A stretch of DNA of 64,000 nt from a virus, in the IMG/VR virus record IMGVR_UViG_3300043179_000079, positions 1,138 through 65,137 of that record; one strand, given 5' to 3'. Positions 1,462-64,000 of this stretch are shown here, in pieces. The position numbers were made by a program, and so were the translations under genes. Below the pieces are notes generated by a model. That model worked only from the letters and a program-made list of their open reading frames with translations. It made no database searches and was not told the DNA's origin. Numbering within the stretch: position 1 is the first letter of the stretch; each line of letters begins with the position of its first letter.

Positions 1462-2493
1462 ATGAGCCAGGAGCGCAGCGTCAGGGTGGTGCGGGTCGGC
1501 CCCGTGCACAGGCACGAGAACGCGGACACTCTGTCTATCACGCTCGTGGAGGGGGGCTACCCGGTGGTCTTCCGCACGGGCGAGTTCAACGAGGGCGACC
1601 TGGCCGCCTACGTCCCGGTGGACAGCGTGGTGCCGGACACCGAGCAGTGGGCCTTCCTCAAGGGCCACCGCCGCATCAGGGCGAAGAAGCTGCGCGGCAC
1701 CTTCAGCATGGGGATGCTGGCGCCCCTGCCCCACCGGGCTGGCCAGGACTGCGCGGAGGAGGCCGAGGCGGCCCACGTGTGCTTCGGGTACGACGAGGGG
1801 CAGGACATCACCGCGGCCATGGGCGTCGTGCCCTACGAGCCCCCCATGAAGTCCATGCTCGTCAACACCTACAACGAGCCCGACCCCGGCTTCCTGCCCC
1901 GGTACACCGACATCGAGGGCCTGCGCCGCTACCAGGACGTCCTGGTGCTGGGCGAGGAGGTGGTCATCACCGAGAAGATCCACGGCGCCAACATGCGCGT
2001 GGCGCAGCGCGACGGCCGGCTCTGGGTGGGGTCTCACAACTGCTTCAAGAAGCCGCCGGTCGAGGGCGGCCCGGTGGACATCTGGTGGCGAACGGCCAGG
2101 GAGATCGGGGTCGAGGGGCGCCTCGACGACGGGTACGCCCTGTACGGGGAGGTCTACGGCCGGGTGCAGGACCTGGGGTACGGGGTCGAGGAGCTGGCCT
2201 TCAGGGGCTTCGACGTCATGGACCTGTCCACGGGCCGGTACTTCGACTACCACGAGCAGACCGTCTGCCTGCAGAACCTGGGCGTGGAGGGCGCCCCCGT
2301 CCTCTACCGCGGGCCCTGGCTGGGCATGGAGGCCCACGCCGCCCTGGCCGAGGGCCCGAGCACGCTCTACCCCGGGCACGTCCGGGAGGGCTTCGTGGTG
2401 CGGCCCGTCAAGGAGCGCTACGACCACCGGGTCGGGAGAGTAATCTTGAAACTGCATGGGCAAAATTTTCTATTGCGAAAAGGGACCGAATGA
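1462..2493 (+). CDS. RNA ligase, Rnl2-like/DRB0094 family, with N-terminal OB-like domain
   Basis: Motif I EKIHGAN, motif III GEVYG, F..FDV, EGFVVRP, terminal LK; N-terminal H.NADTL. Confidence 0.9.
   Translation: MSQERSVRVVRVGPVHRHENADTLSITLVEGGYPVVFRTGEFNEGDLAAYVPVDSVVPDTEQWAFLKGHRRIRAKKLRGTFSMGMLAPLPHRAGQDCAEEAEAAHVCFGYDEGQDITAAMGVVPYEPPMKSMLVNTYNEPDPGFLPRYTDIEGLRRYQDVLVLGEEVVITEKIHGANMRVAQRDGRLWVGSHNCFKKPPVEGGPVDIWWRTAREIGVEGRLDDGYALYGEVYGRVQDLGYGVEELAFRGFDVMDLSTGRYFDYHEQTVCLQNLGVEGAPVLYRGPWLGMEAHAALAEGPSTLYPGHVREGFVVRPVKERYDHRVGRVILKLHGQNFLLRKGTE
2441..2447 (+). promoter_or_regulatory. candidate late-promoter box TAATCTT
   Basis: 8 nt upstream of HNH ATG 2456. Confidence 0.5.
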
Positions 2494-2969: not shown

Positions 2970-3146
2970 ATGGCAATAAAGATGATAGTCCTCCTGCCCG
3001 GCGAAGGAGACCACCCCGGAGTAGGGGTCCGGCTACACGACCCGGGGTGGTACCACTACGACGAGACGTGGGGGTACGTGCACGGCCCGTTCGCCACCCC
3101 GGAGGCCGCCGAGGAGGCCTGCCGGCGGTACGCGGAGTCCCTATGA
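2970..3146 (+). CDS. small hypothetical protein (58 aa, not in ORF track)
   Basis: MAIKMIV...GWYHYDETWGYVHGPFATPEAAEEACRRYAESL*; ATGA overlap with next gene. Confidence 0.7.
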   Translation: MAIKMIVLLPGEGDHPGVGVRLHDPGWYHYDETWGYVHGPFATPEAAEEACRRYAESL

Positions 3147-3352
3147 GGGGCGCCGCCGTATTCCTGGCCGCCGTCCTGATGACGCTGATCGTCGGGACCA
3201 TGCTGACCCGCCTGGCCGCCTCGGCCGGCGCGCCCCCGGCGGCTCCCGCCGCGACGGGTGGATGGCAGGAAGCCCCCCACGCCTGCCCGCGCTGCGGCGG
3301 CCCCGCCTACGTCGGATTCGCGTCCACCGAGTGCCAGCGCGGGCGCTCCTAG
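3143..3352 (+). CDS. membrane-anchored zinc-ribbon protein
   Basis: N-terminal hydrophobic helix; CPRCG...C. Confidence 0.6.
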   Translation: MRGAAVFLAAVLMTLIVGTMLTRLAASAGAPPAAPAATGGWQEAPHACPRCGGPAYVGFASTECQRGRS

Positions 3353-3357
3353 CCGCC

Positions 3358-3807
3358 GTGGCCGGCCTGCCCGTCCTCCAGCCCCGCTCCTGCGGCCGCT
3401 GCACCGCCTGCTGCACCGTCATGGAGGTGCGCGAGCTGGGCAAGCCCCCGGGGACGCCCTGCCCCCACCTGGACCGGGAGCGCCCGGGCTGCGGGCGGTA
3501 CGAGACCAGGCCCGCCTCGTGCCGGGCGTACGCCTGCCTATGGCTGGGGGAGACCCAGGGCCTGCTCCGCAACATGGAGCGCCCGGACCAGCTCGGGGTG
3601 ATGTTCAACTCCCCGGGGGGCGACCACCCGCTGCGCGGCTGCGTGTACGCCTACGAGGTCCGGCCCGGGGGCTACGCCGAGGCCGAGCGGGCCATCGAGC
3701 GCCTGGCCCGCGGGGCCGTGGTGGTGCTGCCCCAGCCCGGCGGCCGCCTGGTGTTACGGGGGCCGCCGGAGCTGGTAGAGCGGGCTCGTCGGATCGCGAC
3801 GACCTAA
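3358..3807 (+). CDS. YkgJ-like Cys-cluster (Zn/Fe-chelating) protein
   Basis: CGRCTACC...CPHL...CGRYETRPASCRAYAC; GTG start chosen just after upstream stop. Confidence 0.75.
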   Translation: MAGLPVLQPRSCGRCTACCTVMEVRELGKPPGTPCPHLDRERPGCGRYETRPASCRAYACLWLGETQGLLRNMERPDQLGVMFNSPGGDHPLRGCVYAYEVRPGGYAEAERAIERLARGAVVVLPQPGGRLVLRGPPELVERARRIATT

Positions 3808-3840: not shown

Positions 3841-3879
3841 AGAATCTGGCACTTCAACCAACAACAAAAGGAACACGCT

Positions 3880-5540: not shown

Positions 5541-5547
5541 AAGATTG
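5541..5547 (-). promoter_or_regulatory. candidate late-promoter box CAATCTT
   Basis: 7 nt upstream of GTG 5533. Confidence 0.6.
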
Positions 5548-7733: not shown

Positions 7734-8114
7734 TGCGCTGGTACGTCAAGCTCCGCGTCCCCACATGCCTCCTGGACCGGCTGGCTGGGCGACGACGCCT
7801 CCAGGAGGGAGGCGGGCCTGGTGCCGGCCGCCGACGGGGGGAGGTGCTTCGTCATGAGGAGGGAGGCGGCCCGGCGCCTGCTGTGGCTCCTCCGCCGGCT
7901 GGACAGGGACGGCGCCCTCGGCCCCCGGGAGACGATCAGGTGCCGCCAGGTGCTCCACAACCTGCGCGCCGCCCTCGGGGACCGCGTGCAGGGCAGGAGC
8001 CCCAGGACCGGGGAGGTGTCGGTGGACGTGCAGCGCGGCATGCCGGGAAGGCGCCCGCCAGAGCAAGAAAGAGTTGACGCCCGGGACGTCCTGGGCGTAT
8101 GGTCGTCGCCATGA
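7733..8114 (+). pseudogene. hypothetical gene with +1 frameshift near 7762
   Basis: MRWYVKLRVP joins HASWTGWLGDD...(7821 frame) if one base is removed from CCCCACAT. Confidence 0.5.
8074..8103 (+). promoter_or_regulatory. sigma70-type promoter, leaderless
   Basis: TTGACG-N18-TATGGT, 7 nt before ATG 8111. Confidence 0.6.
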
Positions 8115-10274: not shown

Positions 10275-10679
10275 ATGGGTCTCGACGTATCGCACGACTG
10301 CTGGCACGGGCCGTACTCCCAGTTCATGAGGTGGCGTCAGTGGCTGAACCACTTCGTGATGATCACCCGCGAGAACGCGGATCCGAGGGCGCGTGAGTTC
10401 AGGTTCATGGGGGCCACCAGAGAGGCCTGGGAGGCGGCGTTGAACGGCGGCCAGTACGACGACCAGACCGTCCCGATCAACGTCCTGATGGCGCACTCCG
10501 ACTGCGACGGGTCTATCCCGGCCGCCGTGTGCGGCCCGCTGGCGGACGCGCTGGAAGAGCTGGTAAGGCGGTGCATGCCTCCGCGCGGGACCTACGACGA
10601 GATGAGGCCGCCGACGGAGAGGTTCGCTGCCGGCCTGCGCCGGGCGGCCGCCGCTGGCGAGGACGTTCTTTTTCGTTGA
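10275..10679 (+). CDS. conserved phage hypothetical protein
   Basis: MGLD.SH..W.G.YS.F..WR...HSDCDG pattern. Confidence 0.8.
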   Translation: MGLDVSHDCWHGPYSQFMRWRQWLNHFVMITRENADPRAREFRFMGATREAWEAALNGGQYDDQTVPINVLMAHSDCDGSIPAAVCGPLADALEELVRRCMPPRGTYDEMRPPTERFAAGLRRAAAAGEDVLFR

Positions 10680-10704
10680 CATCATAACCGCCCTGCCTCA
10701 TAAT
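10676..10704 (+). promoter_or_regulatory. sigma70-type promoter, leaderless
   Basis: TTTTTCG-TTGACA-N17-CATAAT, 6 nt before ATG 10711. Confidence 0.8.
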
Positions 10705-13953: not shown

Positions 13954-13960
13954 AAGATTG
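13954..13960 (-). promoter_or_regulatory. candidate late-promoter box CAATCTT
   Basis: Upstream of membrane/ClpP cassette; overlaps the -35 of the divergent Hsp20 promoter. Confidence 0.6.
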
Positions 13961-13986
13961 ACACCGAGGGGGCTGGTGTTTACGAT
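13958..13986 (+). promoter_or_regulatory. sigma70-type promoter, leaderless
   Basis: TTGACA-N17-TACGAT, 6 nt before ATG 13993. Confidence 0.8.
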
Positions 13987-16139: not shown

Positions 16140-18641
16140 TTACGCGCTCTGCTGGACCTGGGTGATCTGGAACGTGATGGGCACGAACGCGATGGCCGTG
16201 GCCAGCTTCACCTCGGCCTGCACGATCATGGTGTTGCCCCGCACCTGGATCTTGGCGTTCCGGAAGCCCTTCGGGGCGTCGTCCGAGGCCGCGATGAGCT
16301 TCAGCCGGCGCAGGTCCTCGAAGATGCCCTCCAGGACCGTGAGGCCGACCGAGGCGCCGACGTCCGCCACCGACTGGCCGACGATCGCCTTCTCCATCCG
16401 GGTGGCCGCCGTGAGGGCGACCGTGTCGGCCCCGTAGACCGCCTGCACGCTGTTGAAGACGAAGTTGTCGTCCTTGCCGTAGGTGGTCTGGTCGGACACC
16501 CACACGAAGCCGCCGCCCTCGTCCTTGCGGACCGGGAGCAGGCCCGAGAGGAGGGCGTCCTCGACCGCGCTGTCGCTGTTGGGGTTGAACGACCCGTCCG
16601 CGTGCACCGCGCCCGAGACGTTGATGCCCTTCCGCATGATGCTGCGGTAGAAGCCCGCCGCCTGCATGGCCGCGGCCTTGACCGCGAACATCCAGGGCCG
16701 CTGCTGGACCACCGTGCCCACCGAGTTCGGCGTGCGGGCGTCCTGGAACGTCATCGAGCAGCGGAAGCTGGCGACGTTGGACGCCGCCTCCTTGTCGCTG
16801 TCGAAGTCGCCCCGGTGCGACAGGAAGGCCTGCCGGTTGCGGCGCTTCTTCAGCGTGGACATCGAGAGCACGTGGCTCTTGACGTTGGCGTTGACGCCGT
16901 CGATGGTGTAGGTCGAGCCCGAGTCCGTCAGGCCGTCCGCGACGTCGTCCGCCGCGTCGTTGCTGAACAGGGGGACGACGAAGTTGAGCCTCACCGCCTC
17001 CAGGGCGACGCAGGCCGCCAGGACGTCGGCGTCGGCCGTGGCCCCGCGGGTGCCGCCCGAGAGGAAGGCCGCGGCGGCCGGCTGCGGGACTCCCGCGGCC
17101 TCCTGGGCCTCGGGGTCGTTGAGCTGCACCAGCACCGACTCCTGGACCCGCTTGAAGAAGCGGTAGGCGTCCTGCTTGATGCCGCCGGTCTTGGCGCCGT
17201 ACGTGGTGCCGATGCCGGTGCCCGCCGTCTCGTCGAGCGAGGTGGCCGGCTGCTGTCCGAGGACCGCGGTCCCGGCGGACGCCGTGAACCCGGTCAGGGT
17301 GCTGAGATAGGCGGCCAGGTCGGCGATCGTGCCGAAGTCGGCCAGGGTGATGGGGTCGGGGCTGGAGCCGGCGCCCCCGACCACCGTGATAGTCATGACG
17401 CCGTCGGCGATGACCACGGTGCCGTCGGTGCCCTCGTATCCGAGGCGCAGGACGACCGGGCCGCCCGCCGTCAGCTCCTCCGTGATCGAGTCGAGCTGGC
17501 GGGAGACCGTCAGCATCGGCACGTACTCCGAGGCGGAGTAGATGACCGTCGGGGCCGCCGCGGTCGAGATCCAGTCCACGGGCTCGTCGGTGAGGGCGTA
17601 GGCGTTGTAGGTGAACCGGCCGGTGGCCGTGGTCAGCTCGTTGACCTCCATGCTCTTGCCGACGCCGTCGTACGGGGTCGGGCTCTCGTCGTTCGTGATC
17701 GTGACCGGGGAGTAAGCCACGAGGTCGGCCGTGGTCGAGGTGATGGCCACCGCGCCCACCGCCACCGGGGCGGTCTTCTCGTTGCCCACCGCGCCGTCGG
17801 CGTCGAGGAGCTTGGTCGCGCTGATGACCGTGCTGGTCGCCGCCGTGACGACGTACGAGCCGGCGTTCTGGCTGGAGCCGCCCTCGATGACCGACCCGGT
17901 CGGGATGTACATCAGGTCGCCGACCGACGGGGTGGTGGTCCACGCCGTGGACTTGGTGACCGTGACGTCGAAGCCGCTCACCACCGCCAGGGCCAGGGTG
18001 CCGGCCACGACCGTGATGATGCCGCGGTTGACGCCGCCGGTGGCCGCGACGCCCGCGAGGGCGCCGACGCCGGCCACGAAGGTGTCGGGCATCTCGTCGG
18101 CCGCGATGCTGTAGAGCAGCGACGAGGAGCCGGTCAGGCGGATGCTGATGTCGGTGGCGACCGTCGGGGGAGCGAAGGTGAAGGGGCCCGAGGTCGGGGG
18201 GTCCTCCTCGGTGACCGCCTCGACGGTGCGCGAGATCAGGTTGCCCGGCTTGCCCGGCATGCGGGCGACCAGGTCCATGGAGTCCCCGCCCCAGTTGGTG
18301 AGGGACGAGGAGGCCGCGGCCGACACGTTGGTCTTGACCAGGACGATGCGCTGGAACGCGCCCTGGATGTCGGGGTCGTTCGCGGCGGCCATCGCCTCGC
18401 GGCACGCGTCAACGAGCGGGCCCGAGCCGTACTTCGCGACGATCTCGGCGAGCTGGTCGGGGCCGAACGCGTTCTCCTGGAGGTCCTCCTCCTTGGTGAA
18501 GTCCGGGCCCTGGTCGGCCTCGCCGATCACGGCGAGGACGCCGACGGTCGAGAGGCCGGCCGAGCTGCGCTCGACCTTGGTCTGGGCGTAGGCGCCCGGG
18601 ATGATCAGGACGCCCGCGTCGGTGGGGAATGAAAGTGCCAT
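16140..18641 (-). CDS. tail sheath protein
   Basis: 833 aa; N-terminal PGAY.......S and IG.A..G; C-terminal sheath-like domain ending I.FVPITF.I. Confidence 0.85.
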   Translation of the reverse strand: MALSFPTDAGVLIIPGAYAQTKVERSSAGLSTVGVLAVIGEADQGPDFTKEEDLQENAFGPDQLAEIVAKYGSGPLVDACREAMAAANDPDIQGAFQRIVLVKTNVSAAASSSLTNWGGDSMDLVARMPGKPGNLISRTVEAVTEEDPPTSGPFTFAPPTVATDISIRLTGSSSLLYSIAADEMPDTFVAGVGALAGVAATGGVNRGIITVVAGTLALAVVSGFDVTVTKSTAWTTTPSVGDLMYIPTGSVIEGGSSQNAGSYVVTAATSTVISATKLLDADGAVGNEKTAPVAVGAVAITSTTADLVAYSPVTITNDESPTPYDGVGKSMEVNELTTATGRFTYNAYALTDEPVDWISTAAAPTVIYSASEYVPMLTVSRQLDSITEELTAGGPVVLRLGYEGTDGTVVIADGVMTITVVGGAGSSPDPITLADFGTIADLAAYLSTLTGFTASAGTAVLGQQPATSLDETAGTGIGTTYGAKTGGIKQDAYRFFKRVQESVLVQLNDPEAQEAAGVPQPAAAAFLSGGTRGATADADVLAACVALEAVRLNFVVPLFSNDAADDVADGLTDSGSTYTIDGVNANVKSHVLSMSTLKKRRNRQAFLSHRGDFDSDKEAASNVASFRCSMTFQDARTPNSVGTVVQQRPWMFAVKAAAMQAAGFYRSIMRKGINVSGAVHADGSFNPNSDSAVEDALLSGLLPVRKDEGGGFVWVSDQTTYGKDDNFVFNSVQAVYGADTVALTAATRMEKAIVGQSVADVGASVGLTVLEGIFEDLRRLKLIAASDDAPKGFRNAKIQVRGNTMIVQAEVKLATAIAFVPITFQITQVQQSA

Positions 18642-18655
18642 CTGTTCTCTCCTCT

Positions 18656-18662
18656 TAGATTG
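18656..18662 (-). promoter_or_regulatory. candidate late-promoter box CAATCTA
   Basis: Immediately upstream of sheath SD (GAGGAG). Confidence 0.6.
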
Positions 18663-19894: not shown

Positions 19895-19901
19895 AAGATT
19901 G
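19895..19901 (-). promoter_or_regulatory. candidate late-promoter box CAATCTT
   Basis: 29 nt upstream of ATG 19865. Confidence 0.5.
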
Positions 19902-19971: not shown

Positions 19972-19978
19972 CAATCTG
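19972..19978 (+). promoter_or_regulatory. candidate late-promoter box CAATCTG
   Basis: 6 nt before ATG 19985. Confidence 0.5.
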
Positions 19979-19984
19979 GAGGAC

Positions 19985-20728
19985 ATGATCGAACAGTTCC
20001 GCTGCACCCGCTGCCTCCAGACGAAGCCGAGGGCCGACTTTCATGAAAACCCCTCTAGCCGAGCAAGAAGGCCGGTGGTGTACGTTTGCAAGTCATGCCG
20101 CACAACCGTCCGGACCCAGAAAAGGCTGTACAAGTACGGGACCGTCTGCGTTACCTGCAACGAGCCTGGGCCGACGTACGACGACAAGTGCGGTAAATGC
20201 TTGAAGAGATGCGGGTTGAAATACTGTCGCTCCTGCAGGAGAGTCCAAAGCCGCACCGAGTTCTACCCCCACAGGGCCATATGTCTCTCCTGTGAGAAGT
20301 CCCTGGATAGACGCACCGAGACGTACATGGCCATCCTGGAGAAAAAACGAAAAAGGAAGGAAGAGGTCCGTCTTAAGCAGTGCGTCACGTGCAGAAAAAC
20401 CAAGCCGAAGGACGAGTTTTACCGAAGAGACGAGTGCACTACCTGCTCCGACGCGGTGTCTGACGAACAACACAGGGATCGATACCGAGGCTGGATGCTG
20501 CGCAAGCTGTACAACCTATCTCTCGACGACTACGAGCGGATGAAGCAAGAGCAGGGCGGGGTCTGCAAAATATGCAAGGGTTCCAGTTCGACGAAAGCCC
20601 TCGTGGTCGATCACTGCCATCTTTCCGGCAAGGTACGCGGGCTCCTGTGCCATAACTGCAACACAGGCCTGGGCATGTTCCGCGACAACCCCATGACGAT
20701 GAGGTCGGCAGCAGACTATCTGGGTTGA
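19985..20728 (+). CDS. endonuclease VII-type homing endonuclease with N-terminal zinc fingers
   Basis: QGGVCKIC...LVVDHCH.SGKVRGLLCHNCN.GLG.FRD; lower GC. Confidence 0.9.
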   Translation: MIEQFRCTRCLQTKPRADFHENPSSRARRPVVYVCKSCRTTVRTQKRLYKYGTVCVTCNEPGPTYDDKCGKCLKRCGLKYCRSCRRVQSRTEFYPHRAICLSCEKSLDRRTETYMAILEKKRKRKEEVRLKQCVTCRKTKPKDEFYRRDECTTCSDAVSDEQHRDRYRGWMLRKLYNLSLDDYERMKQEQGGVCKICKGSSSTKALVVDHCHLSGKVRGLLCHNCNTGLGMFRDNPMTMRSAADYLG

Positions 20729-23134: not shown

Positions 23135-23145
23135 TTAAGCCTCGT

Positions 23146-23484
23146 GTGATAAGATTACCCTACATGGTCACGGACCCGGAAGAGGTGGCGGCGGCCGGAC
23201 GCGTCATCCGCAGGTTCGTGGAGGACATGAGCATCCGCCTGCGCTTCGGGATGAAGATGCGGCGGGCCGTCCAGAAGACCATCGCCGCCGGCAAGACGCC
23301 CGAGGGGTACCGGCCGGACTGGACGATCAAGACCGCCCGGAGGATAATCGAGGTGCTGAAGGAGGCCGAGGCCGACTTCAACGCCCGGTACCCGTGGGAC
23401 CAGGTCAGCGTCCTGGACATGCACGACGTGGTGGCCACGGTCAGGGGCATGGTAAACGGAGGAGAGGAAGACGATGATGATTGA
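23146..23484 (+). CDS. hypothetical protein (start 23146 or 23164)
   Basis: Strong GC3 bias. Confidence 0.7.
   Translation: MIRLPYMVTDPEEVAAAGRVIRRFVEDMSIRLRFGMKMRRAVQKTIAAGKTPEGYRPDWTIKTARRIIEVLKEAEADFNARYPWDQVSVLDMHDVVATVRGMVNGGEEDDDD
23151..23157 (-). promoter_or_regulatory. candidate late-promoter box TAATCTT
   Basis: 16 nt upstream of GTG 23134. Confidence 0.5.
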
Positions 23485-24581: not shown

Positions 24582-25568
24582 TTAGTGGATCGAGGGGTTG
24601 CGGGCGCTGGCGGGGTGCCCGGCCGGGTCCTGCGCCAGGACCATCCCCGAGCGGACGCTCACCCAGGATACGCTGCCGTCCTCGTGCCGGACCTTGACCT
24701 TGCCGTCGTGCTGGGTCCCGACCGGGAGGTTGAGCTTCACGCGACCCGCCTCGGCGCCTCCGATACCCTTCTCCACCGGGGCACCCTCGGCGGCCGGGGC
24801 GGGAGGGGCGGACGGGGGCGGGGCCGCCTCCGTCCTGGGCAGGAGCCTGGCGGCGTCCCGCACGGCGTCCAGCAGCTCGGCCAGGGCCTCGACCACGGCG
24901 GGGGCCCGCTCCTTGAGGGCGGCCAGCTCGCGGGCCCGGCCCTGCATGGCCCTCAGCACGCCGGCCAGGCGCTCGCGGGCCTCGTCGCCCTCCTTAGCGG
25001 CCCTGGCCTTCGAGGCGCCCTCGGTCTCCCCGGAGGCCTGGGCGGCCTCGCGCAGCTCGTCGGCCAGAGAGGCTTGAGCGGGCTTCTGGGTCTGGGGCTC
25101 GACCTCGGCCTTGCCCAGGCCGTCTCCGTACTCCTCGGCCATCTTGGCGCCCTCGGAACGCTCAGCGCTCAGGCTAGCCGCCACCTCGGCCTCTACCTCG
25201 GGGGAGTGCACCACGGCCCGGTCCCCGCCGCGCAGCTTGGCGGCGTACAGGGCCTTGGCGGCCTCGGACAGGCGCGCCCCGACCCCCACCGACACGGTGG
25301 CGCCGGTGGCCTCCTGGTACCTGGCCCGGACGTCCTCCAGCCGGTCTAGGCGGGCGGCGGACACGGTGGCCCGGCCCTCGTCCCCTCCCATCTGCACCAG
25401 GGCCCCTCCGCCCTCGACGCACCAGGACTCGAACACGCGGTTGCCGCGGTCGATGGCCCCGCTAAGGCGGGCCAGCTCCTCGGGCTGGTCGTGCATGGTG
25501 GCCAGCCCCACGAGGCGACCTATCCGGTCGCCATCCCAGGCGATCCACACGCTAGAGTCGAGTTTCAT
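24582..25568 (-). CDS. minimal CRISPR polymerase (mCpol)-like nucleotide cyclase domain plus C-terminal extension
   Basis: WDGDRIG (25527-25535), MGGDEG (25377-25388), TVSVGVG.RLSEA.KAL.AAK..G; followed by GLGKAE. Confidence 0.75.
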   Translation of the reverse strand: MKLDSSVWIAWDGDRIGRLVGLATMHDQPEELARLSGAIDRGNRVFESWCVEGGGALVQMGGDEGRATVSAARLDRLEDVRARYQEATGATVSVGVGARLSEAAKALYAAKLRGGDRAVVHSPEVEAEVAASLSAERSEGAKMAEEYGDGLGKAEVEPQTQKPAQASLADELREAAQASGETEGASKARAAKEGDEARERLAGVLRAMQGRARELAALKERAPAVVEALAELLDAVRDAARLLPRTEAAPPPSAPPAPAAEGAPVEKGIGGAEAGRVKLNLPVGTQHDGKVKVRHEDGSVSWVSVRSGMVLAQDPAGHPASARNPSIH

Positions 25569-26190
25569 AGTAAAATCTCCGATCGCAAGACACACGACCA
25601 CGCTGCACAGAGCGCCGAATTGCGGCCCGATCTACCCCGTAATGCCGGGCAGCAGCTCCCACGGAGTTGAACCGATTGCCCAGGTCGTCACAGACCGCCT
25701 TACCGGGGCGAGAGGCCTCCATGGCCAGACGATGAGCCTGGCTGAGCGGCCTACCGAGCTTGGCTTGCCGAATCTTCTCCTTTGACTCCGGCGACCATAC
25801 CCGATCTCGCGACCACGGAGCCGGGCGTCCAAGAAGCTGCAATGACCTCGCCGCTCGCTGCTCTGGCGTGTACCTGTAACCGGAGGTGCCCCCACCCCCC
25901 TCTGTGGCGTTCGTCAAGCGTCCGCTTCGACCGAGACTCTTGATCCAGGACACCTCCGCCTTGTCCAGCGCCTCACGGCCACCCAAAATCGTCTCAAGGA
26001 CGACCCACCGTGGACGAAGACCCTTGCGTTGTAGACACTGAAGCCATCGGTCACGGTGGGAGTCGTCGTGGATCTTCAAATGCGCCCTTACCCTGGCTTT
26101 GACATCTTGCGTTGTCTGCCCGACATACCTGACCTCGTTGGTCTCAGGATCGATAAGACCGTAAACAAGGCCACAAACTCCGGGCTCCAC
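25552..26190 (-). CDS. GIY-YIG homing endonuclease with NUMOD-like tail
   Basis: VYGLIDP...VRYVGQT...E..WI...LTN.TEGG; WSPESKEKIR; RFNSVGAAARHYG. Confidence 0.9.
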   Translation of the reverse strand: MEPGVCGLVYGLIDPETNEVRYVGQTTQDVKARVRAHLKIHDDSHRDRWLQCLQRKGLRPRWVVLETILGGREALDKAEVSWIKSLGRSGRLTNATEGGGGTSGYRYTPEQRAARSLQLLGRPAPWSRDRVWSPESKEKIRQAKLGRPLSQAHRLAMEASRPGKAVCDDLGNRFNSVGAAARHYGVDRAAIRRSVQRGRVSCDRRFYYETRL

Positions 26191-26196
26191 GGACCC

Positions 26197-26203
26197 AAGA
26201 TTG
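26197..26203 (-). promoter_or_regulatory. candidate late-promoter box CAATCTT
   Basis: 6 nt before GTG 26190. Confidence 0.6.
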
Positions 26204-26265
26204 CCCCCCTTGACGAGGTCGAGGTCGGGAGGCTACCATCTACCCATGACGCACAGGAGCACGAG

Positions 26266-28515: not shown

Positions 28516-28522
28516 AAGATTG
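28516..28522 (-). promoter_or_regulatory. candidate late-promoter box CAATCTT
   Basis: 9 nt before ATG 28506. Confidence 0.6.
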
Positions 28523-29672: not shown

Positions 29673-29679
29673 AAGATTG
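29673..29679 (-). promoter_or_regulatory. candidate late-promoter box CAATCTT
   Basis: 7 nt before ATG 29665. Confidence 0.6.
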
Positions 29680-29684
29680 CATCC

Positions 29685-29712
29685 TTGACACCCCGGGCGT
29701 AGGCGGTATGAT
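29685..29712 (+). promoter_or_regulatory. sigma70-type early promoter
   Basis: TTGACA-N16-TATGAT. Confidence 0.7.
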
Positions 29713-30782: not shown

Positions 30783-31028
30783 CTGGCCGAGCAGCAGTAC
30801 GCCCAGTGCACCCTGCGCCGCCCCCTCGGGGAGGGCCGATCCCAGGTCGAGGTCGCCTGGATACCCAGCCGGTTCGCGGTGGCGGGGAGGTGGCTGAAGA
30901 TCCGAACCGAGGAGGGGGAGTGGGTCAACGGGTGGCGCGTCGAGAGCGTCGGGGCGCGGCGGGGGTCGTCCTACCTGGACCTGAAGTCCCGGGACCACCT
31001 GCGCCAGAGGAGGGCCTCGGACGTTTAA
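30783..31028 (+). CDS. conserved phage hypothetical protein, apparent CTG start (not in ORF track)
   Basis: QYAQCTLRR...AWIP.RFA..G..L.I...W.NGW.V..V...RD...QR.ASDV*; same frame as kinase, after its TAG. Confidence 0.7.
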   Translation: MAEQQYAQCTLRRPLGEGRSQVEVAWIPSRFAVAGRWLKIRTEEGEWVNGWRVESVGARRGSSYLDLKSRDHLRQRRASDV

Positions 31029-31342
31029 CGTCCAGGAGTGGGACGTTTACCGCCCGGGAGCAGGATTCTCGGAGCGCGAGGAGCGGGTGCGGCCAACCGG
31101 GCCCTCATTCTGAGGCCCCCCAGGGGGTTGCTTGAGTGCACCGACACCCTGGCCGGGCGCCGCCCCGTCTCGTTCATCCACCTGACCAGGTGATCGCCGG
31201 TCTCCTGGCCGCGGCCCAGGTCGTGGTCCAGGGACGCCTCCTCGACCCGGCCGGTCTGTAGGTGCGCCTTGGCCTCCTCCACCGTCCGGGCGTGGACCCA
31301 GCCCGCGGGGGCCGGTCGGACGTCGTCGAGCCAGAGCTTCAT
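31025..31342 (-). CDS. cyclic-phosphate-processing receiver-like domain protein
   Basis: MKLWLDD.R..P.GW...SLDHDLG...G...VHSSNP.G..RM. Confidence 0.85.
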   Translation of the reverse strand: MKLWLDDVRPAPAGWVHARTVEEAKAHLQTGRVEEASLDHDLGRGQETGDHLVRWMNETGRRPARVSVHSSNPLGGLRMRARLAAPAPRAPRILLPGGKRPTPGR

Positions 31343-31347
31343 CTTCT

Positions 31348-31539
31348 CTAGGAAGATTGACGAACCGACACCGAGTAGTTCTGGGACCGGTTGATGGCCG
31401 CCACGAGGTCCGCGACGCTCTCGGTCGGGTCCCGCAGCACCCACGCCATGTGCTCCTTGACGTACGCCCGCAGCGCGTCGTCCCCGACGAGGGAGACGGA
31501 CCTCCTCGTCCACAGGTTGTCGATGGTGTAGGTGCTCAT
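31348..31539 (-). CDS. stand-alone homolog of the N-terminal domain of the tandem kinase protein
   Basis: Y.I.NL.T.....L..DD.L......W.......S...L......Q shared with start of 31544..33838. Confidence 0.7.
   Translation of the reverse strand: MSTYTIDNLWTRRSVSLVGDDALRAYVKEHMAWVLRDPTESVADLVAAINRSQNYSVSVRQSS
31353..31359 (-). promoter_or_regulatory. candidate late-promoter box CAATCTT
   Basis: 10 nt before ATG 31342. Confidence 0.55.
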
Positions 31540-33841: not shown

Positions 33842-34909
33842 TTAGGGGGCCCCCTTCGAGCGGTACATCGGGACGGACCCGTCGAACAGGTGCTGGCGCC
33901 CCTCGGCCGCCGCGTCCAGGAAGGCCGCCCGGCGGTTGAAGTTCTGGGAGACGTGGTCGCGCAGGCCGGGGTGCCGGATCAGGTCCAGCCTCCTGTCCAT
34001 GGCCGCCTTGACCGCGGGGGACGCGCCACGCCACCACGCCAGGGCAGGGCCGTACGCCGCAGCGCCAGCCTCCTCGCGCACCCGGACGTCGTCCATGCCC
34101 CAGTCAGCAGTGGGGCGCGGGATGGCGGGTACGAGGTTCTCCCAGGCCTGGTCCCGGTGGTAGGACAGCACCCCGTCGTCGCGGTTCATCCTCGCGACGT
34201 GGCGCGGGTGCCACTTGGGCGCCGCGTACTGGAAGGCCAGGGCGTGGTCGATGGCGAGGGGGCGCTGCTCGGGGTCGGGCCCCAGGAGTAGGTTGTCCCC
34301 GTGCCGGTTCGGCATCCCGGTCAGGAAGTCCATCAGGACCATCTTCCTGACGTGGTCGCCCATGGAGGACGGCCCGTCCCCCCTCGGGGAGACGCCCGTC
34401 TGCATGTCGCCCACGGAGGTGTGGCCGGGCGCCATGTGGACCACCACCAGGGGGTGCCGTCCGAACCCGTCGTCGTGGTGCACCACGTGGACGCGCTGGT
34501 GGAGGTCGCCGATGCCCCCGGCGTGGTACAGCGCCTGGCTGGTCATCTCGGACCAGCCCCCGATGGGGTGCCTCCCGTACCCCCGATGCAGGTCGCGCGG
34601 GATCCTCTCGAAGTAGGGCTTCACCAGGAAGCGGTCCCTGGCCCCGGCCTGCGCGGTCGAGGCGACCTCGAACACGGCCTTGTGGGAGCGGACCATGCCC
34701 ATGCCGCCCTGCCGGTGCTGGGGGGCGCCGCGGACGCTCCGGACCGGCCCCGGCCAGGACTGGACGCGCGAGAAGGCCTCCACGAGGTGGCCGTGGGCCG
34801 GCGGGTGGAGCCCCCGCTCCCGCTCGTGGTCCACCAGGGACGGGCCCTCCTTGGCCTGGGCCTCCATGACCCGGCCGACGCCCTCCAGGCGCTTGGCGAG
34901 GCTAGCCAC
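33842..34909 (-). CDS. HipA/PI3-4K-like kinase, probable pseudokinase
   Basis: LVKPY, GWSEMT.QALYHA.GIG.LHQ as in kinase 2; catalytic DRH is NRH (34301-34309). Confidence 0.75.
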   Translation of the reverse strand: MASLAKRLEGVGRVMEAQAKEGPSLVDHERERGLHPPAHGHLVEAFSRVQSWPGPVRSVRGAPQHRQGGMGMVRSHKAVFEVASTAQAGARDRFLVKPYFERIPRDLHRGYGRHPIGGWSEMTSQALYHAGGIGDLHQRVHVVHHDDGFGRHPLVVVHMAPGHTSVGDMQTGVSPRGDGPSSMGDHVRKMVLMDFLTGMPNRHGDNLLLGPDPEQRPLAIDHALAFQYAAPKWHPRHVARMNRDDGVLSYHRDQAWENLVPAIPRPTADWGMDDVRVREEAGAAAYGPALAWWRGASPAVKAAMDRRLDLIRHPGLRDHVSQNFNRRAAFLDAAAEGRQHLFDGSVPMYRSKGAP

Positions 34910-37508: not shown

Positions 37509-38354
37509 CTACACGTTCCCGGCGAAGAGCTTCTGCCCCACCACAGCCTTGATCTTTCCGACCAGCGCGTCCCTCTTCTTCTCCAGGTCGGTGATTCGCT
37601 GCAGGTACACCTGGGGACCCGGGCCCGAGAACGACTCCGACAGCCCGTCGATCCCGATGCTGTGGCCGGTGGTCTGGGCGTAGGTGGCCGCCAGCATGGA
37701 GAGTATGTCGATCGCCGCGATGGTCCCGATCAGGTCGTTGACGACCTTGGGCACCATGCCGTCCGGGAAGCCCGCCATGACCTCGAAGTGCCACCAGCTC
37801 CCGATCCAGTGGCTGGCCCCGAACGCCTGCAGCATGGCCAGTCCGGCCCCCGAGGCGGCCGGGACGACCGCTCCGGACCCGGTGGACCCGATCACGTACG
37901 GCATCAGGTTGATCTGGCCCTTGTAGAGCTGGCCGACGTCGATCCACTCCTTGGGGACCGTGAACACATCCTCCCCGTTTGAAAGTTGGATGGTCAGGCT
38001 CTTGATGGCCCAGATGGGCCGCACCGCCAGGCGGAAGAACCCGTTGGACCTCCACTCCGACTGGTCGAAGGGCTCCTTGGTGTCGTACTGGGTCGGCATG
38101 ATGGTGGCGTGCGTCAACTGCTCCGCCATCGTCACCGCCCGCTCGATGTACTCCTTGAGCAGCTCGTTGGTCATCCTCTCCCGCTTGCCCGTCTCCGGGT
38201 CCGGGACCTGGGAGACCAGGGAGAGGCCGAACAGGTGCAGCGCCCGCAGGTCGTCCGGCTCAAGCAGGGGCTCGGTCCTCAGCCAGGGGCTCTCCTTCCC
38301 CTTGGGGGGCCACGTAGCCGTGGCCAGGAGCTTGGCGGCCTCCAGGTCCGCCAC
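37509..38354 (-). CDS. putative head-tail adaptor/neck protein
   Basis: Position after capsid; S..IDGLS.S.S...Y..RI..L pattern. Confidence 0.7.
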   Translation of the reverse strand: MADLEAAKLLATATWPPKGKESPWLRTEPLLEPDDLRALHLFGLSLVSQVPDPETGKRERMTNELLKEYIERAVTMAEQLTHATIMPTQYDTKEPFDQSEWRSNGFFRLAVRPIWAIKSLTIQLSNGEDVFTVPKEWIDVGQLYKGQINLMPYVIGSTGSGAVVPAASGAGLAMLQAFGASHWIGSWWHFEVMAGFPDGMVPKVVNDLIGTIAAIDILSMLAATYAQTTGHSIGIDGLSESFSGPGPQVYLQRITDLEKKRDALVGKIKAVVGQKLFAGNV

Positions 38355-38780: not shown

Positions 38781-38787
38781 AAGATTG
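38781..38787 (-). promoter_or_regulatory. candidate late-promoter box CAATCTT
   Basis: Upstream of SD of 38757. Confidence 0.55.
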
Positions 38788-39157: not shown

Positions 39158-39330
39158 GCCTCCTCGGCCTCCAGGTCCCGCTCCGCCTCCCCGGCGCCGA
39201 GCGCCTCGCCCACGGCCCGGTCGAAGTGCTCCTGGGGCTCCCCCCGGCTCACCCTCCTGGCCACCTCCTCCAGCAGCCCCCTCACCTCCTGCGGCTTGGC
39301 CCTCTCCAGGAGGCGGCACAGTGCGCACAT
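39127..39330 (-). CDS. small hypothetical protein
   Basis: MCALCRLLE...; GC3 bias. Confidence 0.6.
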   Translation of the reverse strand: MCALCRLLERAKPQEVRGLLEEVARRVSRGEPQEHFDRAVGEALGAGEAERDLEAEEAWERRRRSPG

Positions 39331-42930: not shown

Positions 42931-42937
42931 GAGATTG
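42931..42937 (-). promoter_or_regulatory. candidate late-promoter box CAATCTC
   Basis: Upstream of the 42861-scaffold-capsid operon. Confidence 0.5.
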
Positions 42938-42963: not shown

Positions 42964-42970
42964 CAATCTA
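42964..42970 (+). promoter_or_regulatory. candidate late-promoter box CAATCTA
   Basis: 6 nt before GTG 42977. Confidence 0.55.
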
Positions 42971-42976
42971 CCGGGG

Positions 42977-43312
42977 GTGAGCCAGACCGTCCGGTGCGCC
43001 GCCTGCCTGAGGCCCCTCCCCCGGGGCGACTTCCACCGCAACGCCGCCTCGAAGAACGGGGTCACCTCGCGCTGCCGTGGCTGCCGGCGGGAGGAGGACT
43101 ACTTCTCGAAGCGCTACCAGACGCGCTGCGGCCAGTGCGGGAGGAGCCGGCCCCTGGACCGCAACCGGTCGTGCCGGGCGTGCAACGAGGAGGCCGGCCT
43201 GCGCCAGTGCCGGGGGGCCTGCGGCGAGCTGCTGCCGATGTACCTGGAGTTCTACGCCGGCAAGGGCACCTGCAAGCGGTGCGCCAAGGCCGCTAGGCCA
43301 ACGTCGGGGTGA
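42977..43312 (+). CDS. multi-zinc-finger protein, nuclease-less paralog of 19985..20728
   Basis: C..CL...PR.DFH.N..S...C..CR...K.Y.T.C..C...C..C...GL+.CR.C...EFY...C..C.K shared. Confidence 0.75.
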   Translation: MSQTVRCAACLRPLPRGDFHRNAASKNGVTSRCRGCRREEDYFSKRYQTRCGQCGRSRPLDRNRSCRACNEEAGLRQCRGACGELLPMYLEFYAGKGTCKRCAKAARPTSG

Positions 43313-48967: not shown

Positions 48968-48974
48968 AAGATTG
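48968..48974 (-). promoter_or_regulatory. candidate late-promoter box CAATCTT
   Basis: Upstream of AGGAG SD of 48954. Confidence 0.6.
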
Positions 48975-52323: not shown

Positions 52324-52330
52324 AAGATTG
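52324..52330 (-). promoter_or_regulatory. candidate late-promoter box CAATCTT
   Basis: 9 nt before ATG 52314. Confidence 0.6.
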
Positions 52331-52353: not shown

Positions 52354-52382
52354 TTGACAGCAGAACCCGGGAGGCCTATATT
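52354..52382 (+). promoter_or_regulatory. sigma70-type early promoter
   Basis: TTTTTTTCTG-TTGACA-N17-TATATT. Confidence 0.8.
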
Positions 52383-58767: not shown

Positions 58768-58774
58768 AAGATTG
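58768..58774 (-). promoter_or_regulatory. candidate late-promoter box CAATCTT
   Basis: Abuts GGAGG SD of 58757. Confidence 0.6.
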
Positions 58775-61699: not shown

Positions 61700-62673
61700 A
61701 TCCGCTCGTCCGCCATCCTCTCCAGGACCGCCGTGGGGGTCCCGCCCTTGGCGGTGAAGGACTGCAGGTACCCGGAGAATGCCTGGCGTACCCCCTCCGA
61801 CTCCCGGGCCCGGGCGGCGGGCGGGTCGGTCCGGAAGGGGCGCACCCGGGCGCCCGGGCACGCGGCCCGCACCTCCTCGACCCGGGCGGGCAGGGAAGCG
61901 GAGGTCCCGTACACGTCCACCCGCACGTCGATCAGCGGGCCGGCCTCCGGCAGGGCCGCGGGGGCCCCGGGGCGGTCCTCCAGGTGGACTATCTTGCGGC
62001 AGCAACGCGAGGTGTCCTCCCCGCACACCTTCGAGAACCTCCCGTCCTCGCCGTGGTCCACCGCCCACACGTGGCGGTCCTTGTTGGCGTCCGAGGCCGA
62101 GCGCCACCTGGGCGCCCCGACGTACCAGACCTTGCCGAACTCCTGCGGGTCGTGTACGTGGCCGCTGATGACCCGCTCCTGGGGGACGTCCGCCTGGTCC
62201 ACCCCCTCCTCCCCGGCGTAGAACCCGTTCTCGTAGCGCGACCCGTCGAAGAGCTGGTGGCACACAACGACCGGGCTCCCGGACGCGCAGCAGGCCGCCA
62301 CGAAGTCCTCCTTGCGCGCCATGTACGGCAGGTGCAGCACGCCCCCCAGCTCAAGGGGCGCGTCCACCACGGTCACTCCCAGGTCTCGGTAGGCCACGAG
62401 GATGTGGTGCCGGCCGTCCTGCGAGGCGTCGTGGTTCCCCTTGAGGACCACCACCTCCAGGTCGTCGGCCACCAGCCGCGACAGCTCCTCGCGCCACATC
62501 GAGACCACCTCAAGACGCACCACGGCGTGGGTGTGGTGCAGGTCGCCAAGGATGGTCACCCGGTCCGCGGCCACCTCCCGCGCAAAGGAGCGAACCCGGC
62601 CCATGAGGGCCCGGCAGTCGTCCACCTCCCCCGCGGTAGCGTGCGGATCGCCTACATAGACCACCCTAGCCAT
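61678..62673 (-). CDS. Mre11/SbcD-like metallophosphoesterase
   Basis: GDPH, GDLHH, GNHD, CHQ, SGHVH, Y.G.P. Confidence 0.9.
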   Translation of the reverse strand: MARVVYVGDPHATAGEVDDCRALMGRVRSFAREVAADRVTILGDLHHTHAVVRLEVVSMWREELSRLVADDLEVVVLKGNHDASQDGRHHILVAYRDLGVTVVDAPLELGGVLHLPYMARKEDFVAACCASGSPVVVCHQLFDGSRYENGFYAGEEGVDQADVPQERVISGHVHDPQEFGKVWYVGAPRWRSASDANKDRHVWAVDHGEDGRFSKVCGEDTSRCCRKIVHLEDRPGAPAALPEAGPLIDVRVDVYGTSASLPARVEEVRAACPGARVRPFRTDPPAARARESEGVRQAFSGYLQSFTAKGGTPTAVLERMADERIWGAATW

Positions 62674-62980
62674 CGGCGGCCCCCTCGTCCCTCTCGACGA
62701 CCAGAACGCGCTCCTCGGGCACGAGGATGAACCTCCTGCCGCGCACCTCGAAGACGTCCTTAGCCCAGGAGGACAGGCGGTCCTCCCCCCTCAGGTACAC
62801 GACGTCCCCGGGGGCGTACCCGGACCCGTCGCGGCCTCGGTACCCGAACACCACCTCGGAGCAGGCCAGCTCCCACTTCTGCTTGATGGTGACGACCCCG
62901 CCGCTCTCCTTCATTTCGACGGAGGTGCGATCGAAGGGCGCGCAGGCCACCTTCCCGTTGACGCACAGAAACGACCTCAC
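62666..62980 (-). CDS. GroES-like co-chaperonin (tentative)
   Basis: ~104 aa; VV.G......GDVVY...W......G..FILVPEE.VL.V. Confidence 0.5.
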   Translation of the reverse strand: MRSFLCVNGKVACAPFDRTSVEMKESGGVVTIKQKWELACSEVVFGYRGRDGSGYAPGDVVYLRGEDRLSSWAKDVFEVRGRRFILVPEERVLVVERDEGAADG

Positions 62981-63999
62981 GAGATCACCTCCCCGGCCTC
63001 CAGGGCCCCTTTCAGAGCCAAGAACTTCCTCTCCACGCATGATAGCACACGGGCAGAGCGTCTCATAAAGGCGGACTCCTCGGACCGCTCCGCAGAGCGA
63101 TCGGGGCCGGACTCCTCCGGAGAGGCCACCCTGGAGGCGGCGCGACGCACCCCGGCCGGACCTATGTCGGTGCTGACGCACGAGGCCGCCGACATCAGGC
63201 CGGCCAGCTCGGAGGGGGAGGTCTTGAAGGCGCCCTCGGCCTCCTGGTTGACCCGATCGGACAGGGCGTCGAAGTCCACCCCGTCCATGCCGGAGACCGT
63301 CTTGCCGACCGCCTTGTTGGCCCGGTAAACCTTGCGCTTGTCGGCCGGGTAGAAGTGAACCAGGGTCTCGCTGTATTGCTCTATGAGGTTGCCAACCATG
63401 CGGCCTATGGCGACCGCCCGGAACACCCTCCCGAAGGGCGGCACGAACTTGTCCACCGCGGCCAGGAGGCCCTCGCTGGAGATCTGCACCAGGTCCAGGA
63501 AGGACAGGTGCGACCGCGGGGTCCGCGACCAGAAGATGCGCGCCCGGTTGAGCGCCAGCGGCAGCAGGAGGAGGACCATCTCCTTGCGCAGGCGCTCGAT
63601 CTCCTCGGCCCTCCTCCGCAGCCCCCCGCTCCACCCCCCGAGAGAGACCACGAACCTCACGAAGCGGTAGTTGGTCCGGAACCTCGTCAGGGCCGCCGAG
63701 TCCCCCACCTTGAGGGCCTGGCTGATCTGCGAGGCGAACACCGCCTGGCGCTCCCGGAAGTACGGGCGCGCCGACAGGATCGACCCCTGGCTGACGTGCT
63801 TGAGGAACCGGCGGTAGGTCTTCGGGCCCCGGTGGTGCCTGGCGACCATGGCGCGGAACTCGTCCTCCAGCCTGATCAGGCGATCCACCTGGGCGCGCTG
63901 GTAGGCCAGGAACGCCACGGCGTCCCGGACCGGCGGCGCCCCTATCTCCTGGAGCTTGCGCTCCATCTGCCCGATCAGGGCCCTGAGCTGCTCTCCCCC
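62977..63999 (-). CDS. phage sigma70-family sigma factor, 5'-partial
   Basis: Region 2 DLVQISSEGLLAAVDKF...FRAVA; ends shortly after a region 4.1-like L...ER..L.LKG; frame open to window edge. Confidence 0.85.
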   Translation of the reverse strand, partial: GGEQLRALIGQMERKLQEIGAPPVRDAVAFLAYQRAQVDRLIRLEDEFRAMVARHHRGPKTYRRFLKHVSQGSILSARPYFRERQAVFASQISQALKVGDSAALTRFRTNYRFVRFVVSLGGWSGGLRRRAEEIERLRKEMVLLLLPLALNRARIFWSRTPRSHLSFLDLVQISSEGLLAAVDKFVPPFGRVFRAVAIGRMVGNLIEQYSETLVHFYPADKRKVYRANKAVGKTVSGMDGVDFDALSDRVNQEAEGAFKTSPSELAGLMSAASCVSTDIGPAGVRRAASRVASPEESGPDRSAERSEESAFMRRSARVLSCVERKFLALKGALEAGEVIS

Positions 64000-64000
64000 C

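Follow-up and report, generated by a model that had tools for sequence, protein, structure and literature searches.

A start-proximal CAATCTT box and a putative phage sigma factor without region 4.2 in an uncultured relative of Myxococcus phage Mx1: a candidate -10-only late promoter

The 64 kb of viral DNA analysed here, hereafter called the window, belong to a 67.7-kb virus record of the IMG/VR database (IMGVR_UViG_3300043179_000079), which has a guanine-plus-cytosine (GC) content of ~70% and is estimated to be 41% complete. Two features are the subject of this analysis, a short sequence, CAATCTT, found a few nucleotides (nt) before start codons, and a gene at the end of the window which encodes a sigma-like protein. 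This protein displays 39% identity to a protein of Myxococcus phage Mx1 annotated as 'putative RNA polymerase sigma factor' (WNM70309.1), its sole match among 50,697 phage records, and the order of genes is alike in both genomes: helicase, sigma, small open reading frame (ORF), phosphoesterase, two ORFs, large terminase, ORF and portal. Judged by this resemblance, the virus is an uncultured relative of Mx1, whose complete genome (OR576727.2; 169.6 kb, 55% GC) served for comparison together with a family sample of 80 further 20-kb loci around homologous sigma genes (GC 34-67%). Most virion genes of the window are located on its minus strand.

CAATCTT occurs 11 times in the window, in all 11 cases on the minus strand and never on the plus strand, against 1.11 copies expected from dinucleotide shuffles, and 0 of 100 shuffles reached 11 copies. 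Ten of the 11 copies lie 6-29 nt 5' of an ATG or GTG opening an ORF of at least 80 codons (background fraction 0.167, p = 1.6e-7), and in an unbiased scan of all 7-mers before ORFs of this length CAATCTT ranks first among the start-proximal 7-mers of the window. An initial annotation, made from the sequence alone, had described a looser box before about 19 starts and had listed 52314, 18641, 58757, 48954, 38757, 29665, 28506, 26190, 23134, 5533, 42977, 19985 and 2456; the box is found at each of these. Its wider claim stands in part, since strict CAATCTT is enriched whereas the degenerate pattern [CTG]AATCT[N] is not when taken over the whole window (26 matches vs 20.6 expected). Some of the 'about 19' starts may therefore be due to chance, and the secure set consists of the 11 exact copies and of those variants which are backed by comparison. 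The variants kept before the Mx1 orthologue, CAATCTA of the sheath gene and CAATCTC before 42861, are credible on that comparison, and GAATCT copies such as those at 3842, 8369 and 22221 are probably chance occurrences. The copies and variants are the following:

58768-58774, minus strand: CAATCTT, 10 nt before ATG 58757 of the gene after the terminase; Mx1 orthologue at 7617 with CAATCTA at +6
52324-52330, minus strand: CAATCTT, 9 nt before ATG 52314 of the prohead protease polyprotein; Mx1 protease with CAATCTT at +6
48968-48974, minus strand: CAATCTT, 13 nt before ATG 48954
42931-42937, minus strand: variant CAATCTC, 69 nt before ATG 42861, first gene of the unit of the major capsid gene; Mx1 orthologue at 18321 with CAATCTC at +43
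42964-42970, plus strand: variant CAATCTA, 6 nt before GTG 42977 of a small Cys-rich endonuclease-like ORF; Mx1 orthologue at 18226, on the opposite strand, with CAATCTT at +6
38781-38787, minus strand: CAATCTT, 23 nt before ATG 38757; Mx1 orthologue at 23137 with CAATCTT at +18
31353-31359, minus strand: CAATCTT, 10 nt before ATG 31342 of a cREC_REC domain protein
29673-29679, minus strand: CAATCTT, 7 nt before ATG 29665; Mx1 orthologue at 30724 with CAATCTT at +15
28516-28522, minus strand: CAATCTT, 9 nt before ATG 28506
26197-26203, minus strand: CAATCTT, 6 nt before GTG 26190 of a low-GC GIY-YIG-like ORF 5' of an mCpol-like gene
23151-23157, minus strand: variant TAATCTT, 16 nt before GTG 23134; Mx1 orthologue at 36563 with CAATCTT at +6
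19972-19978, plus strand: variant CAATCTG, a weak member, 6 nt before ATG 19985 of an Endonuclease_7/HNH-type ORF (GC 0.56)
19895-19901, minus strand: CAATCTT, 29 nt before ATG 19865 of the gene 5' of the sheath gene; Mx1 gene in the same position, at 37603, with CAATCTT at +29
18656-18662, minus strand: variant CAATCTA, 14 nt before ATG 18641 of the tail sheath gene; Mx1 sheath gene at 39319 also with CAATCTA
13954-13960, minus strand: CAATCTT, 17 nt before a 48-codon ORF (13936); target gene uncertain
5541-5547, minus strand: CAATCTT, 7 nt before GTG 5533 of a 136-amino-acid Cys-rich ORF
2441-2447, plus strand: variant TAATCTT, a weak member, 8 nt before ATG 2456 of a low-GC endonuclease-like ORF

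In the genome of Mx1, CAATCTT is found in 25 forward and 7 reverse copies, reversed-pattern controls giving 2 and 4, and it again ranks first among start-proximal 7-mers (14 of 32 copies, p = 2e-6). With the GenBank annotation, exact CAATCT[TA] is located 6-36 nt before 16 plus-strand coding sequences, which include those for the portal, the prohead protease, the sheath, the tailspike, two baseplate proteins and virion-module enzymes; none of the seven reverse-strand copies precedes an annotated minus-strand early or replication gene. The spacing is 6 nt at the Mx1 genes 7617, 13023, 36563, 75289 and 121405. Between the window and Mx1 the box is kept before eight homologous genes, seven of them orthologues by tblastn and one by position, and the box-bearing genes of the two genomes share 32-46% amino-acid identity (tblastn). 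A related endonuclease-like ORF that occupies the same position in the two genomes also retains it. Even the type of variant agrees: the sheath genes of both phages are preceded by CAATCTA, and the genes that open their capsid units by CAATCTC. In each of three independent groups of related loci (GC 34-67%) CAATCTT falls within the top three or four start-proximal 7-mers. Positional enrichment before virion-module starts, a check named beforehand, is accordingly seen in the window, in Mx1 and in the related loci. Near starts the last position of the box is enriched for T (113/336) and less so for A (20/112), C and G being at background.

In a set of 106 non-redundant start-proximal box sites, AATCTT is fully conserved and no -35 element is found, the information being ~0 throughout the stretch 5' of the box (at most 0.18 bit for positions -40 to -5 and at most 0.09 bit for -40 to -6, counted from the box); the early impression that these starts share no -35 is thereby confirmed. 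The highest information outside the box is at the 7th nt after it, which is a purine in 73 of 96 sites and T in no more than 6 when the sites with a spacing of 6 nt, in which this nucleotide is the A of the ATG, are removed. The distance to the next candidate start is equally structured: among 316 copies in 79 sequences no start lies at 0-5 nt, 8, 10, 7, 6 and 3 starts lie at 6, 7, 8, 9 and 10 nt, respectively, against ~0.6 per distance for permuted control 7-mers, fewer starts are seen at 11-17 nt, and the distances of 18-34 nt form a second mode. Tetramers resembling a Shine-Dalgarno sequence are present in 40 of 63 long leaders vs 15 of 63 control windows. Near-consensus promoters of host type (TTGACA, 16-18 nt, TAnnAT) are scattered in the virion cluster before plus-strand genes, three of them with 6-7 nt to the ATG:

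52354-52382, plus strand: host-type promoter
29685-29712, plus strand: host-type promoter
26210-26239, plus strand: host-type promoter
13958-13986, plus strand: host-type promoter, TTGACA-N17-TACGAT, -10 hexamer 6 nt from the ATG
10676-10704, plus strand: host-type promoter, TTGACA-N17-CATAAT, -10 hexamer 6 nt from the ATG
8074-8103, plus strand: host-type promoter, TTGACG-N18-TATGGT, -10 hexamer 7 nt from the ATG

The messenger RNAs (mRNAs) from these last three promoters would be leaderless, and leaderless transcripts of ordinary promoters thus share the spacing of the box. Because the minimum distance from box to ATG is exactly 6 nt, as in the TTGACA-N17-TAnnAT promoters of the window, AATCTT may be assigned to positions -12 to -7. 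The hard limit at 6 nt would be due to the fact that an ATG cannot precede +1, and the onset of the second mode at 18 nt to the ~12 nt of leader needed by an mRNA led by a Shine-Dalgarno sequence. Taken together, the spacing and the purine at the predicted +1 suggest that transcription starts 7 nt after the box. With this assignment the box shows two features of the -10-only promoter class, namely an element with A at -11 and T at -7 (the last base being sometimes A) and no conserved -35.

The sigma-like protein is encoded at the end of the window:

62977-64000, minus strand: phage sigma factor gene; regions 1.2, 2, 3 and 4.1, no region 4.2 helix-turn-helix

It comprises 342 amino acids (protein P0001), with a start near window coordinate 64005, about 5 nt past the end of the window (the ORF inside the window is 62977-63966), and its stop codon (TGA, 62977-62979) shares bases with the GTG at which the next ORF begins (GTGA). 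The NCBIfam model SigB/F/G (TIGR02980) matches it with an E of 2e-5, and a profile built from 44 family members finds Geobacillus SigF (1l0o_C, E 2.3e-7) and RpoD chains (E 1e-6) in the PDB. The profile alignment is continuous, placing query residues 137-337 on RpoD 374-568 through regions 3.0-3.2 with the block DLxQxGxxGLxxAVDKF aligned, and its last block, L..ERKLLRLKG, falls on LTAREAKVLRMRFG, the second helix of region 4.1. The AlphaFold model (pLDDT 85) contains helices at 222-277, a low-confidence acidic linker at 276-300 and terminal helices at 301-318 and 323-331; Foldseek relates it to SigA and RpoD chains with a probability of 1.0, and VIA structural alignment superposes model residues 3-338 on residues 94-568 of E. 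coli sigma70 (Z 11-11.7). Both the profile and the structural alignments stop at sigma70 residue 568, the end of region 4.1. In E. coli sigma70 a further 45 residues follow, forming the helix-turn-helix that reads the -35, and in the window gene the stop codon is reached 10 residues after the 4.1 helix. Of the parts that define the sigma70 family, region 2 and region 3 with the 3.2 linker are therefore present and the region 4.2 helix-turn-helix is absent; despite the best sequence similarity being to group-3 sigmas, the complete region 4 and two-box promoter of that group are not found. The initial annotation had read a sigma with region 2 that ends after a 4.1-like helix, and this reading is upheld by the profile, the structure and the tails of the family described below; modelling of the C-terminus, proposed at the time as a check, revealed no full region 4.

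More than 370 homologues of 337-370 amino acids were found, many from ~170-kb contigs and none with a precomputed Pfam domain, and an exhaustive profile search yielded 346 family representatives (50% identity clusters) at E<=1e-30; the database labels of the family are generic sigma only. After the 4.1 helix the tail measures 1-13 amino acids in nearly all of the 193 members in which the terminal helix motif was matched, with a mode of 3, and the longest tail, of 38 amino acids, is Gly/Ala-rich and of low complexity. The listed tails of the other members among the 269 examined, in which the terminal motif was unmatched, end at the same place. In accordance with these alignments, the loss of region 4.2 is natural and common to the whole sigma family. 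A frameshift or truncation artefact of the contig was rejected because the relatives all end at the same place, and no significant match to Sigma70_r4 was obtained anywhere in the window record or in the complete genome of Mx1, in which a single sigma-like ORF was detected. The family alignment also contains a near-invariant block in region 2.4/3.0, IE.YSET.VHFYP.DKRK.YRANK, and a conserved N-terminal domain (residues 1-125, ~63630-64000) with an invariant ARPYFRERQ..F block. This domain has no sequence-family match; structurally, its ~125 residues are placed on sigma70 from residue 94, that is on region 1.2 and the start of the non-conserved region.

Based on these observations, we hypothesize that the promoters of the virion module contain no sequence-specific element other than CAATCT(T>A). 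The association of the box with virion genes is what is seen, and from it the 'late' timing of these genes is suggested. The box would be a -10-type element in which AATCTT covers positions -12 to -7 (A at -11, T at -7) and is extended upstream by C at -13; in the 106 sites a weak signal is also given by G at -14. RNA synthesis would begin on the seventh nucleotide after the box, so that an ATG 6-10 nt after it would yield a leaderless or nearly leaderless mRNA and an ATG at 18 nt or more an mRNA having a leader with a Shine-Dalgarno sequence. The reader of the box would be the host core RNA polymerase together with the phage's own sigma, which would keep the core-binding and -10-reading parts (1.2, 2, 3.0-3.2) and the pair of helices with which domain 4 begins (4.1); a sigma lacking the 4.2 helix-turn-helix could not read a -35 and would need none. 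We assign a probability of roughly 0.7 to this statement in full, namely a -10-only late promoter read by a phage sigma devoid of region 4.2.

The assignment of the box to the phage sigma is favoured by four points. A sigma without region 4.2 predicts exactly a promoter without -35, box and sigma co-occur throughout the family, at GC contents of 34-70%, and the region 2.4/3.0 block of the sigma is nearly invariant; the fourth point comes from another motif. This second motif also lies near starts in relatives, reads TTCGCTATA in loci L007-L060 and GTGATATAA in loci L061-L086, and in some cases directly follows the sigma stop codon (L009 11046 and L016 11029 are among the loci with the motif). 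Both forms are absent from the window and from Mx1, and in Mx1 a GGATCTGC/GTAGATC k-mer set is start-proximal instead. This motif is probably another promoter class, early or middle and read by the host. Since the box is invariant across the GC range while the second motif changes by clade, the pattern fits a phage-borne reader of the box.

Several observations weigh against this interpretation. The association between sigma and box is a co-occurrence within one phage family, and the Pfam match to Sigma70_r2 (residues 150-195) reaches 14.5 bits, under the gathering cut-off of 24 bits. Some relatives use CAATCTA as often as CAATCTT, and a few favour it, as in the whole-record counts of 5 vs 0 in G004 and of 14 vs 9 on the gene strand in G002; T at -7 is consequently not strict. 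The equivalents of the melting aromatics of sigma70 (Y430, W433, W434) are, by eye, unconserved in the family, as is common in group-3 sigmas. In addition, a GGAGG-like run stands between box and ATG at several short-spacing sites (58757 in the window, 36563 in Mx1); being upstream of the predicted start, it would be usable by read-through transcripts only.

In the chief alternative, another factor might read the box as a -10-type element, either a primary or alternative sigma of the host redirected by an unrecognised phage protein or a second sigma-like protein missed by Pfam, the truncated sigma then serving another promoter class such as the TTCGCTATA-type motif of relatives. The phage proteins AsiA/MotA of T4 and gp39 of Thermus phage P23-45 do redirect the host sigma, AATCTT keeps the A(-11)/T(-7) pair and could be used by region 2 of any sigma70-type protein, such factors may hide among the genes of Mx1, the majority of which carry a hypothetical annotation, and with a second motif class in relatives the assignment of sigma to motif is not unique on co-occurrence alone. 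Nevertheless, we regard this as unlikely, because a box that is invariant at GC 34-70%, presumably in very different hosts, alongside a second motif that varies by clade is the reverse of what a host sigma would lead us to expect. Moreover, neither the window nor Mx1 contains the second motif despite having the sigma, a single sigma-like ORF can be detected in the complete Mx1 genome, and a holoenzyme with host sigma normally needs a -35 or a TG extension, neither of which is present.

The box could instead act in RNA, as the site of a sequence-specific endoribonuclease that trims polycistronic transcripts, some nucleotides 3' of the box, into short-leader or leaderless mRNAs, in the manner of MazF, which cleaves at ACA sites and creates such mRNAs, or as a translation signal. 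Its strand-specific occurrence in very short intergenic gaps of long co-oriented gene runs would agree with processing, a fixed cleavage offset would also explain the 6-nt minimum to the ATG, and translation of read-through transcripts is suggested by the Shine-Dalgarno-like runs which some sites have between box and ATG. We consider it improbable, since the boxes at 52324, 29673, 26197 and 13954 head units at divergent junctions with plus-strand genes, where no co-oriented upstream gene would supply a transcript to process, the geometry equals that of bona fide -35/-10 promoters of the same genome, and a purine is preferred at the predicted +1; a translation enhancer would be expected at a fixed distance from the ATG, yet the spacing runs from 6 to 69 nt. 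Less probable still is a site for a phage double-stranded-DNA-binding activator or repressor, or a replication or packaging signal, to which the sigma-like protein would be unrelated. A short conserved motif in a phage in which most genes have no known function would suit such a regulator, but the motif is asymmetric, with neither dyad nor repeat, it is strictly oriented with the downstream gene, and it is never closer than 6 nt to the ATG, with the bimodal spacing expected of a start site; activator sites, furthermore, normally lie upstream of a required -35 and core promoter, and none is present.

Domain 4 of sigma is normally needed both to read the -35 and to anchor sigma on the beta-flap, and gp55 of T4 is the classic exception, with two helpers. 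gp55 has ~185 amino acids, is essentially a region-2-like module and depends both on gp33, bound to the beta-flap, and on the sliding clamp loaded onto DNA. Late transcription of T4 combines gp55, a truncated sigma, with gp33 and the gp45 clamp at a late promoter having TATAAATA at -10 (PMC2988020; structure PMC7892883). The window resembles T4 in having a sigma-family protein devoid of the -35-reading domain and a single -10-type box, with no -35, before virion genes, and in that the box is kept across a whole phage family and is carried by homing endonuclease genes too. In contrast to gp55, the window sigma has 342 amino acids and regions 1.2, 2, 3.0-3.2 and 4.1, and CAATCTT is unrelated in sequence to the T4 box. 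Pfam and PHROGs scans of the protein returned generic sigma matches only (Sigma70_r2; phrog_351, E 0.012) and no gp55-type family; in size and domain content it differs from gp55.

By sequence and fold the closest proteins are the group-3 sigmas (SigF/SigB/SigG, FliA/sigma28), which have regions 2, 3 and 4.1 in common with it (sigma28 chains, Z 10.8-11.4), but group-3 sigmas possess a complete domain 4 and two-box promoters, whereas the phage protein ends after 4.1 and has an extra conserved N-terminal domain of ~125 amino acids. As Kumar et al. (1993) are said to have found, sigma70 without region 4.2 still works at TGnTATAAT (extended -10) promoters. In Thermus phage P23-45, region 4 is detached by gp39, and transcription is then confined to -35-independent promoters (PMC3950348). 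These cases are similar in that initiation occurs with no 4.2/-35 contact and specificity is provided by bases 5' of the -10 hexamer, here C at -13 and the weak G at -14. They differ in that a host primary sigma is at work there, artificially truncated or remodelled by a phage, while here a natural loss of 4.2 is fixed in at least 346 sequence clusters and the box is not TATAAT. To our knowledge, other phage sigmas use two-element promoters or retain domain 4, and none has been described with the 1.2-to-4.1 architecture or with CAATCTT. They share with the system proposed here the redirection of core RNA polymerase to phage promoters in a temporal cascade (SPO1 gp28 and gp33/34; phiEco32 gp36; Bacillus phage sigmas, PMC9429907).

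Literature searches on the box, on Mx1 promoters and sigma, and on sigmas without region 4 returned no description of the box or of the sigma architecture, and on this evidence the late switch proposed here would be an undescribed variant of the T4-like late-gene switch. Its particularity is that a phage family keeps sigma through region 4.1 and drops only the DNA-reading helix-turn-helix, with a box of 7 base pairs unchanged over a GC range of 34-70%. For the large and almost entirely uncultured family of ~170-kb Mx1-like phages as a whole (at least 346 clusters, GC 34-70%), we lean slightly towards the view that it shares one portable late module, a 4.2-less sigma reading CAATCTT at -13 to -7, with many late mRNAs leaderless from the A of the ATG, which would be a third independent -35-independent solution beside T4 gp55/gp33/gp45 and the remodelled host sigma. 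If true, this would provide a compact and possibly host-independent promoter/sigma pair as an expression tool, a naturally occurring case in which to examine how open complexes form independently of a -35 and what the region 4.1 stub does on the beta-flap, and a simple rule (CAATCTT, start 7 nt downstream) with which hundreds of metagenomic phage genomes could be annotated for late operons, true start codons and leaderless genes. Both Mx1 and Myxococcus xanthus can be cultured, so that the prediction is open to direct test.

The rule already mends the annotation of Mx1 at two places, at which the GenBank record is likely in error. The true start of the Mx1 prohead protease is probably the ATG at 13023, 6 nt after the box, instead of the annotated 13002, and on the minus strand an unannotated ORF of 122 codons (17891-18226) has CAATCTT 6 nt before its ATG and is homologous to window ORF 42977-43312, in the same divergent position. 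On the minus strand of the window, 31025-31342 encodes a protein of 105 amino acids which consists of the cREC_REC domain alone (PF20274, E 1e-26) and has its own CAATCTT box 10 nt 5'.

Four low-GC ORFs of the window carry the box or a variant, in agreement with the early proposal that homing endonucleases bear it: 25552-26190, with a weak GIY-YIG match (GC 0.60), 19985-20728, of the Endonuclease_7/HNH type (E 5e-23), and the small ORFs 42977 and 2456, which have a common Cys-rich N-terminus. An HNH gene of Mx1 has an ATG 5' of its annotated start, and TAATCTA lies 6 nt before that ATG. The GIY-YIG-like ORF (25552-26190, minus strand) is located between the CAATCTT box and the mCpol-like gene (24582-25568, minus strand), the start of which it overlaps. 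As the Mx1 orthologue of the latter, at 33963, has the box immediately in front, the endonuclease gene looks as if inserted just downstream of the putative late promoter.

With regard to the sigma gene itself, homologues of 573-824 amino acids (P0072 and ~25 of the 150 listed representatives) have a large insert at one site. The insert of P0072 is intein-like (C...HN/S, the slash marking the junction) and lies inside the most conserved block, IE.Y/SET.VHFYP, which corresponds to Y211/S212 of the window protein (~63370). Inteins typically have essential, conserved sites as homing targets. That the longer members are full-length sigmas was rejected, the extra residues being a mid-protein insert (the intein in P0072) or a short low-complexity tail, with no 4.2. 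The ORF that overlaps the sigma stop codon (62666-62980, minus strand) keeps its position in Mx1 (3075-3539), a phage that encodes GroEL; neither it nor its Mx1 counterpart has a Pfam family match, and by eye it looks beta-rich and GroES-like, not like a helix-turn-helix. A split sigma, with region 4.2 supplied by this ORF, was rejected as unsupported, given the lack of a Pfam match and of Sigma70_r4 in Mx1, though a non-homologous partner might take that part.

The idea that the box is a mere reverse complement of an extended TTGACA -35 was likewise rejected, the two elements overlapping only at 13954/13958 and standing 5-23 nt apart at the other divergent junctions. Including that overlap, four of the host-type promoters are arranged back-to-back with a minus-strand CAATCTT, 0-23 nt apart, and early and late RNA polymerase complexes might exclude each other at these junctions.

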